Positions 1,022-3,493 of a stretch of DNA of 5,076 nt are shown piece after piece. How positions within the stretch are numbered: the stretch's first letter is position 1; each line of letters starts with the position of its first letter. The notes below the pieces were generated by a model, which saw only the letters and a program-made list of their open reading frames with translations, ran no database searches and had not been told where the DNA came from. The DNA is from a virus (lineage: Duplodnaviria; Heunggongvirae; Uroviricota; Caudoviricetes). The position numbers and the translations under genes are program-made. The stretch lies in the IMG/VR virus record IMGVR_UViG_2663762849_000013. One strand, given 5' to 3'.

Positions 1022-2920
1022 TTAAAAATCAGCCTGACTCGGGATCAGTTTTTGCCAGATTGCTGAAACTTGTTTTGCCTGGTGACGGGCATCGTCCAGC
1101 GCATTGTGGGGTACGCCTTCGAATGGAATAGCCATTCTGACATCAAAGCCAATGGCATTACCCAGTTCAACGATTGTGCGTACATCGCGATCGTTGTAGT
1201 AAAGCCACGGGTAGGGGATCCCCTGCCGTTCATATGAACGGCGTAAAATTACGTTGTCGAAGTTGGCTCCATTTCCCCATATCTGAACAAAAAATTCACC
1301 GGAGTTTTCGTCGATAAATTCCCGCAATTGTAACAGTGCATCATCTAACGGGATTTCATCGGTCATAATGGCAGACTGCGCTTCACGTGATTGCTTCAGC
1401 CACCTTTTAATGACGTCACGATCAATGACTCCGCCAGCAGTTTCCAGATCGATAGTCTTACTAAATTCCGGTCCCATACCTCCGGTTTGCGGATCGAAAA
1501 ATATTGCACCTATTGAGATAATCGGGGCATCAGGATTTTTTCCCATGGTTTCAAGGCCTATCATTAGATGGTCACACGTCCTGCTGGTGGATGTGATTTC
1601 GTGATGACCGTTCACCTTAATTGAGTGATCTGCCGTCTCGCCAGTTTCATTATCGCTATCGTGATGCTGATTGCCGCCAGCATTCTCCTTGTGTGGATGT
1701 TCAGCGCCTTCCATTTTCTCCGGATCATCTTCCTGAACTTCAACCTGATACTCTTCATCGAATGTTTCCTGGTATGTTGCGTCGCCCATCACCGCGCCAC
1801 AATCAGGGCAGTTGCCGCCGCCGGTCTGACCGCAGGCGGTGCAGACTTTTTCCACTTCCTGTTGCGCCACTGGTTCAGGCTGTTTCGTTTCTGGCTCGTT
1901 TTGTAACGCATTTGGGCTGTTTTGTTCCGCTTTTTGGTAGTTCCGTTCCGATTCATGCTGGTTCTGGTTTACAGAATCGCGGGTCTGGATCCCCTTAACC
2001 CATTTCGGATCATTCGGGGCGCTAATCCCTTCAACAAATTCACCACGTGATACTGCAAGCAGTTCATCGGCGTCAGGCTGGCTGATATTGGCTGCCTGCA
2101 TAATTTTGTTTACTTCGTCAGCGGTAACTTTTACCGGCTCTGGTTGTGCGGTCGTGTCAGATGCACCAGTATTTTGTTGTGAACCTGAGTATGTACTGTT
2201 TTTGCGGGCGAAATATTCTTCTTTCGTGATTTCAGTAGCCCCGGCAGCCAGCGCCTTATCCAGACCAGAAAGTTTGTTTGCGCGACCGTATTTTTCGCCA
2301 TCCTTGTCGGTGAAGAGGAAGTAGAACGGCCCCTCACGCTCTACAGATGGTTCGACTTCCACTTTGCATTCGGTTTTTTCGTTGTCCGGAATTGCCGTTT
2401 CCACTGCATCAGTTTCTGGTACTGGCGACGAGAGAGTATCAGTTGCGCTCTGATTTGTTCCTTCATCTTCAAACACGCCCTTTGTAGTCAGGTATTCAGT
2501 AATGTATTTGTTCAGTGCCACAGGGTCTTTGTGAATGTCGATCGGACGTTCACGGACAAGGCCAAAAATAGTCTGGCGGTCGTAGCGAAGGGCATCAGGC
2601 TGTTTGCGCATTGATGCCGAGATACGCTTCCAGTCTTCGCGGTCGTTGTCGATAACTTCATTTTTTGCCCAGCGATGGATGCTGCCGTCAATGTTTCCGG
2701 CATCCACATCACCAGGCCAGAGAGCGTAGGCCAGTTCGTCATCCAGTGTTTTCCATGTCTGCTTGTATTCGCGATGAATGGTAGCAATGACCGGGCTGAT
2801 TTTTCCTGTTGAATTTTCAGTGTGCTGTTGATTGGTTCTGGCGCGGGCGAGATCAACAACAGACGTGTATTTTCCGGTTTCCTTGCGTTCACCTTCGCGA
2901 CGTTTTTTCCAGATGCGCAT
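1022..2920 (-). CDS. Large prophage exonuclease-like protein (often annotated as putative exodeoxyribonuclease VIII), C-terminal 632 codons with an Rv2179c/DnaQ-like 3'-5' exonuclease domain; in frame with the upstream 184-codon ORF across one TAG
   Basis: The C-terminal ~180 aa carry DEDDh-type motifs: IGLETMG...PIISIGAIF (motif I region), IWGNGANFDNVIL (motif II) and HNALDDARHQ (motif III). The middle of the protein is an acidic Q/E-rich linker with a CxxC-x7-CxxC zinc ribbon (VCTACGQTGGGNCPDCG). It lies between ydfD/dicB and xis, where lambdoid prophages carry their exo-type genes. Confidence 0.8.
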   Translation of the reverse strand: MRIWKKRREGERKETGKYTSVVDLARARTNQQHTENSTGKISPVIATIHREYKQTWKTLDDELAYALWPGDVDAGNIDGSIHRWAKNEVIDNDREDWKRISASMRKQPDALRYDRQTIFGLVRERPIDIHKDPVALNKYITEYLTTKGVFEDEGTNQSATDTLSSPVPETDAVETAIPDNEKTECKVEVEPSVEREGPFYFLFTDKDGEKYGRANKLSGLDKALAAGATEITKEEYFARKNSTYSGSQQNTGASDTTAQPEPVKVTADEVNKIMQAANISQPDADELLAVSRGEFVEGISAPNDPKWVKGIQTRDSVNQNQHESERNYQKAEQNSPNALQNEPETKQPEPVAQQEVEKVCTACGQTGGGNCPDCGAVMGDATYQETFDEEYQVEVQEDDPEKMEGAEHPHKENAGGNQHHDSDNETGETADHSIKVNGHHEITSTSRTCDHLMIGLETMGKNPDAPIISIGAIFFDPQTGGMGPEFSKTIDLETAGGVIDRDVIKRWLKQSREAQSAIMTDEIPLDDALLQLREFIDENSGEFFVQIWGNGANFDNVILRRSYERQGIPYPWLYYNDRDVRTIVELGNAIGFDVRMAIPFEGVPHNALDDARHQAKQVSAIWQKLIPSQADF

Positions 2921-2938
2921 CTCTGCCTGAATTTCGGG

Positions 2939-3493
2939 CTATTTGGCACCAGGCTTACATTTATGCTTAACCCACCCGATGGCATGCAGCTTAAGCTCCG
3001 GATACATGGCGTTAACTTCTGGCATTTTCATCAACGCTTCAACGATATGTCCGTCGAATGTTGCCATGTCTTCCTGCAACAATTCCTGTGCGCTAATAAC
3101 CATATCAACGGTGATGTTTTCACATGTGTCGAACTTAACCATGACAGCGTTCTGTACTTCAGGGGCCAGCTTGTCAAAAGTGACGTTCATCGGATCTGAT
3201 TCAGTCTCAACCGGGACAAAGGAAGCAGACTCCTCATCCCAGCGGTTTTCCTGCATATATTCAGCATCCCAGGAATCGAGGGCAGGGCGGGGTATGCCGG
3301 GTTTATCCTCACAGACAATAAATTTATAAGCGCAGTCCTGAGCTGCAGGGAATTGCTCCAGAAATTGCCAATGAAATTTTGCGCGTGCGCGACGCTCATC
3401 ACCGGCTTCAATGGCAGTGGCCACCGCAACAGCGCTATCTTCTTTTATGGCCTGTTCATCAGGAATAGCAGCGCAAATAAAGACCTTACTCAT
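2939..3493 (-). CDS. N-terminal 184-codon segment of the same exonuclease-like reading frame, ended by an in-frame TAG; domain of unknown function
   Basis: Both segments are in the same minus-strand frame (3493 and 2920 are congruent mod 3). Only the TAG at 2939..2941 and 6 sense codons (PEIQAE) separate this ORF from the ATG of the 632-aa ORF. A GAGG lies about 10 nt upstream of the ATG at 3493. Whether K-12 ydfE is the same gene is a guess. Confidence 0.6.
   Translation of the reverse strand: MSKVFICAAIPDEQAIKEDSAVAVATAIEAGDERRARAKFHWQFLEQFPAAQDCAYKFIVCEDKPGIPRPALDSWDAEYMQENRWDEESASFVPVETESDPMNVTFDKLAPEVQNAVMVKFDTCENITVDMVISAQELLQEDMATFDGHIVEALMKMPEVNAMYPELKLHAIGWVKHKCKPGAK

Follow-up and report, generated by a model that had tools for sequence, protein, structure and literature searches.

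The closest described relatives of the gene studied here are the 823-aa exonucleases of lambdoid phages that make up PHROG 2082, such as those of phages mEp460 (VUF53467.1) and Tritos (TRITO_27). They have the same domains, the same 2472-nt length and the same place between ydfD/dicB/DicF and xis/int as the copy examined here, with which they share 92-95% nucleotide identity, and relatives in this group are annotated as 'exodeoxyribonuclease encoded by cryptic prophage CP-933P'. Our copy, found in a stretch of 5,076 nt (hereafter, the window), differs from them at codon 185, which is TAG instead of TGG, and at codon 646, which specifies Gly where they have the Asp of Exo I.

Other known sequences resemble only parts of the gene. 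E. coli ORFs of the ydfE type, 306 codons long and located beside ydfD, dicB, DicF and ydfC, are also N-terminal remnants of it; unlike the window copy, they are truncated by a loss of homology after nt 767 of the gene rather than by a point nonsense mutation. We take these ORFs to be the ydfE of the Qin prophage of K-12, which is presumably cut by an IS element in that strain. RecE (exonuclease VIII) has a central, non-catalytic stretch in common with the gene, with 85% nucleotide identity to the recE of Rac over ~400 nt, but where RecE carries the RecE nuclease domain, the window copy carries a C-terminal nuclease of the DEDDh Rv2179c-like type. Finally, comparison with the Rv2179c-like/DexA-type DEDDh exonucleases (PF16473; PDB 8kel) gives a match to the full Pfam model and an alignment with 8kel_A over the Exo I region. 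Unlike these enzymes, the domain in the window ends a long multi-domain phage protein, is severed by the amber codon from the N-terminus of that protein, and is without the first Asp of the motif. Literature searches on ydfE and on Rv2179c yielded no account of what this phage protein does.

Results and Discussion

Genomic setting of the exonuclease gene

The window is the entire contig CCBY01000343.1 of the draft assembly GCA_000936105.1, and the locus belongs to a lambdoid prophage, Qin-like or CP-933P-like, of which it represents the early-left arm. The minus-strand gene order is ydfC, DicF, dicB, the ydfD-like gene, the exonuclease gene, xis and int (Table 1). The DicF antisense sRNA lies between ydfC and dicB, as it does in Qin-type prophages.

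Both sides of the window end in an insertion sequence, with junctions at 103/104 (IS600) and 4841/4842 (IS1), each of which is present in 0 of 5,426 complete E. coli genomes. E. coli matches that begin at query position 1 are annotated as 'IS3-like element IS600 family transposase'. The IS600 element cuts int, such that IS sequence supplies the stop and the final few residues of the 212-aa int ORF, and one relative (L101) has a 376-aa ORF at int. At the other end, the arm of the prophage is cut short by IS1 immediately upstream of ydfC.

Table 1. Positions of the features identified in the window.
Feature	Coordinates	Strand	Basis or remark
End of IS600-type (IS3 family) element and start of orfA	1..103	-	Junction seen in comparison with L018; boundary uncertain by ~2 nt
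Integrase gene int, N-terminal about 209 codons only	104..731	-	Pfam Arm-DNA-bind_1; cut by IS600
Excisionase gene xis, 82 aa	709..957	-	Pfam Exc, E = 3.6e-7; annotated excisionase in relatives
Full exonuclease gene	1022..3493	-	PHROG 2082 type; pseudogene with one internal amber codon
C-terminal 632-codon remainder	1022..2920	-	RecE-shared central region and Rv2179c-like (DEDDh) 3'-5' exonuclease domain
Codon 646, GGC (Gly) in place of the Asp that is the first carboxylate of Exo I motif hhhDxETxG	1556..1558	-	Homologue comparison
ATG opening the 632-aa ORF	2918..2920	-	Met192 of the full protein; an ordinary internal codon
Amber codon TAG, codon 185; ancestral TGG (Trp)	2939..2941	-	Comparison with homologues and L018
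N-terminal 184-aa fragment	2939..3493	-	Pfam YdfE_N and YdfE_C; PHROG 2082 positions 1-184
ydfD-like DUF1482 gene	3777..3589	-	Neighbour gene
dicB	3962..3774	-	Neighbour gene
DicF antisense sRNA, full length	4137..4188	-	Rfam RF00039, 76.7 bits vs. gathering score 48
ydfC	4749..4531	-	Neighbour gene
IS1 left end, inverted repeat GGTGATGCTGCC..., and start of insA	4842..5076	+	Junction seen at 4841/4842 in comparison with L018; Zn_ribbon_InsA and HTH_Tnp_IS1 hits

An amber codon in place of a tryptophan codon

The initial annotation, made from the window alone, had proposed that a nonsense mutation splits one long exonuclease-like gene into two ORFs. The positions on which it relied are all exact, and the proposal itself is borne out by the orthologues, which are single 823-codon genes with a sense codon at the site of the stop. 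The ORFs 3493..2939 (184 aa) and 2920..1022 (632 aa) lie in a single frame of 823 codons, which measures 2472 nt including the terminal stop, and the sole internal stop in this frame is the TAG at codon 185 (2941..2939). It is followed by the six sense codons CCC GAA ATT CAG GCA GAG (PEIQAE) and then by the ATG at 2920..2918. The other five frames of the same stretch contain 16 to 80 stops each, compared to one internal stop here, and the two ORFs are collinear on the single 823-position profile of PHROG 2082, at positions 1-184 and 192-823, respectively. The long, near-open frame is thus not a product of chance.

The 184-aa ORF of the window served as the query for a homologue look-up, which gave 6 loci from species-representative genomes and 80 from IMG/VR. 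Together with those of phages mEp460 and Tritos, the set comprises 88 loci. Codon 185 is TGG in all 88, one mutational step from a stop and among the sense codons that the initial annotation had listed as candidates for this site. These loci include copies from E. ruysiae and E. albertii as well as a 61%-identical copy from S. flexneri, in which indels shift the register and the TGG was read by eye. Exactly 823 codons are found in 57 of the loci, while in mEp460 and Tritos a single 2472-nt CDS, with TGG at codon 185, is annotated at the same position. The mutated base is at window position 2940, where the coding strand has A for an ancestral G (T for C on the plus strand). Searches beyond the homologue set agree: a degenerate 28-mer with TGG has at least 120 matches in IMG/VR and its TAG counterpart has 0, and 3,859 of the 5,426 complete E. 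coli genomes contain a match to an 81-mer that has the stop at its centre, the best matches all being one base off and the exact TAG 81-mer being found in 0 of the 5,426.

A near-identical relative (IMGVR_UViG_2563366825_000022; L018) allows the mutation to be dated relative to other changes. Its identity to the window ends at window position 104 on the int side, and the two agree at 4736 of 4738 bases, which is exactly the region between both IS junctions. Within the exonuclease gene, the sole difference is TGG in L018 vs. TAG in the window. The second difference, at window position 758, affects codon 67 of xis, where the window has His (CAC) and L018 has Pro (CCC). Since the window holds the majority state at this xis codon, by 28 to 1, the xis change belongs to the lineage of L018, and the amber codon is therefore the only change in 4.7 kb that is assigned to the lineage of the window. 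The amber at W185 is very recent.

The two-gene reading of the 184-aa and 632-aa ORFs is not supported; they are one gene. We are confident that the W185 amber is a recent, loss-of-function nonsense mutation in an 823-codon exonuclease gene.

The family to which the gene belongs has a dN/dS of 0.21-0.37 in comparisons with intact homologues, and so is a genuine single gene under purifying selection. The private changes in the whole data set number 214 non-synonymous to 118 synonymous, which indicates that slightly relaxed selection along terminal branches is a common feature of this prophage gene. In addition, the same gene is independently inactivated in six other loci (L012, L013, L023, L049, L055 and L079), by 1-nt frameshifts, multiple indels, or the loss of homology after nt 767 that characterizes the 306-codon ydfE-like form (L012 and L013). 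As these copies are broken in differing ways, decay of the exonuclease gene is recurrent.

Domain composition and the loss of the Exo I aspartate

The gene belongs to PHROG 2082 ('exonuclease') by both its full-length match and its synteny between ydfD/dicB and xis/int. The YdfE_N and YdfE_C assignments of the 184-aa ORF are precomputed Pfam hits (PF27430 and PF27432), and a search of this ORF against a local copy of Pfam gave no match. In the 632-aa ORF, residues 451-622 match Pfam PF16473 (Rv2179c-like) at 202.9 bits, compared to a gathering threshold of 27, and cover positions 2-177 of the 177-position model. The description of the gene as exonuclease-like was thus right, inasmuch as Pfam places an Rv2179c-like 3'-5' exonuclease domain at its C-terminus. 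No solved structure was matched by either whole ORF, while the isolated C-terminal domain gave a weak match (E = 0.001) to the 227-aa chain 8kel_A, an 'exodeoxyribonuclease' that is presumably of the T4 DexA type.

The region shared with RecE occupies approximately residues 55-434 of the 632-aa ORF. The NCBIfam RecE model PRK09709 scores 281.4 bits against this ORF, far from its cutoff of 1269, and aligns only over model positions 271-602; the protein is therefore outside the RecE/exonuclease VIII equivalog. Such a mosaic of a RecE-type centre and a different nuclease makes 'exonuclease VIII' labels misleading.

The predicted nuclease domain of the window carries a lesion of its own. Its Exo I motif reads MIGLETMG, whose first Gly stands opposite the D of IIDFETMG in the alignment to 8kel_A, i.e. 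the D-x-E of the motif is G-L-E in the window vs. D-L-E in 92 other distinct sequences. Among distinct full-length homologues, codon 646 is GAC in 91, GAT in one and GGC in one, the latter being the sequence of L018 and L101. Given that D646G is common to the window and L018, it predates the amber codon. The same lineage carries further private changes, namely C761Y and R764L, which are at columns invariant in 89 other proteins, as well as A238T and D672G. DEDDh enzymes that lose their first metal-binding carboxylate are expected to be crippled, and on this basis D646G would cripple the predicted exonuclease. Taken with the private changes shared with L018, this suggests that, by the time the amber arose, the exonuclease gene had probably lost its function or come under relaxed selection.

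Probable neutral decay of a prophage gene

Considering both the IS-cut ends of the prophage and the prior change of Asp646 to Gly, the amber codon is best explained by neutral decay in a gene that selection has ceased to maintain. A G-to-A transition turned Trp185 (TGG) into an amber codon (TAG) in the exonuclease gene, between ydfD/dicB and xis/int. The prophage fragment that carries it would already have been in decay, as IS600 interrupts int, IS1 interrupts the opposite end and Asp646 is replaced. Ribosomes would then stop at codon 185 and release a 184-aa fragment with the YdfE_N and YdfE_C modules. The 3'-5' exonuclease part at the C-terminus would be detached from it and be made, at most, in traces, through basal readthrough or inefficient reinitiation at the ATG. 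As to the order of events, D646G came before the amber, and the IS insertions may have preceded or followed either change.

The W185 amber is ordinary gene decay in a well-known prophage gene, and its importance beyond annotation is small. For annotation, the 184-aa and 632-aa ORFs should be recorded as a single pseudogene with a W185 amber instead of two genes, and, given a nuclease domain of the DEDDh Rv2179c/DexA type, the label 'exonuclease VIII' should not be used. In addition, the locus provides a clean example of stepwise prophage decay, for which a near-identical relative that lacks the stop can serve as a comparison.

Translation on either side of the stop

The start of the gene at 3493 is preceded by a GAGG Shine-Dalgarno sequence with a pairing energy of -6.3 kcal/mol, within the range of -5.8 to -6.6 kcal/mol obtained at the starts of four genes (exonuclease, ydfD, ydfC and int), whereas xis reaches only -0.4 kcal/mol. 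The 184-aa fragment is the only part of the gene that is expected to be translated efficiently. At ATG 2920, the initial annotation had seen no obvious ribosome-binding site, and this agrees with the calculated anti-Shine-Dalgarno pairing of -3.6 kcal/mol, which is equalled or beaten by 41% of the internal ATGs of the gene. There is a weak AGG 5 nt upstream of this ATG, and the context GCAGAGATG is found in all but one of the homologue contexts listed. It is a Met codon conserved within the gene rather than a start in its own right. In E. coli, ribosomes are known to reinitiate at low levels 18 nt past a stop, which is the distance found here, and some reinitiation may take place at ATG 2920; otherwise, we infer that the downstream part is without expression.

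These properties bear on a different reading of the locus, namely a gene fission in progress, whereby termination and reinitiation at ATG 2920 would yield a free N-terminal protein of the YdfE type and a separate exonuclease. The stop does fall just past the YdfE_N/YdfE_C region, with the next in-frame ATG only 18 nt away, and the gene has other truncated forms, among them the ydfE-like ORFs of 306 codons and two further families, PHROG 5943 with 257 positions and PHROG 20376 with 530. Nevertheless, the split at 184/185 occurs in one lineage only, the putative start pairs with the ribosome no better than 41% of internal ATGs, and the exonuclease domain that would be set free is already without its Exo I Asp. 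Moreover, the other truncations are frameshifts or losses of homology at different positions and resemble random decay. We therefore consider fission very unlikely. The same low probability applies to a variant in which the amber marks an early stage of fission or domestication, with the 184-aa YdfE-type module retained as an independent protein while the exonuclease part is discarded. If that were true, the recurrent truncations elsewhere (the 306-codon remnant and the frameshifted copies) would reflect selection rather than drift.

Authenticity of the amber codon and readthrough

A sequencing or assembly error with TGG as the true codon could be suspected from the single-base difference between the window and its near-identical relative, and from the origin of the window in a fragmented draft assembly. 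However, four further assemblies (GCA_000941195.1, GCA_000941435.1, GCA_000941535.1 and GCA_000939215.1) have contigs that carry this TAG too, between flanks identical to those of the window, and some of these contigs were seen in two samples. Such an error, which the initial annotation had named as a possible refutation of the mutation, is accordingly most improbable. Two of the TAG-bearing contigs also include the same IS1 junction, which indicates that the assemblies are probably one clone; they rule out a one-off error but show no independent origins of the stop.

Suppressor-dependent readthrough had also been suggested in the initial annotation, and this, like a programmed readthrough in which the amber is decoded and the full-length protein is still made, finds no support and is almost certainly not the explanation: the stop is followed by C, which is not the strongest context for termination in E. 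coli, and no second lesion breaks the frame, but the stop is conserved in 0 of the 88 loci and in 0 of the IMG/VR pattern matches, no tRNA gene was found within the window, the amber postdates all other changes, with the xis difference as a possible exception, and the element is disrupted by IS.

One further observation concerns three contigs from unrelated assemblies (L004, L005 and L009) that end inside codon 185. An assembly branch point at a polymorphic base was considered for these and rejected, as they end at three different bases and represent other prophage variants, with 91-99% identity, and L004 reads as far as TG. Their ends are a selection artefact of the look-up with the exact 184-aa product and carry no signal of polymorphism.
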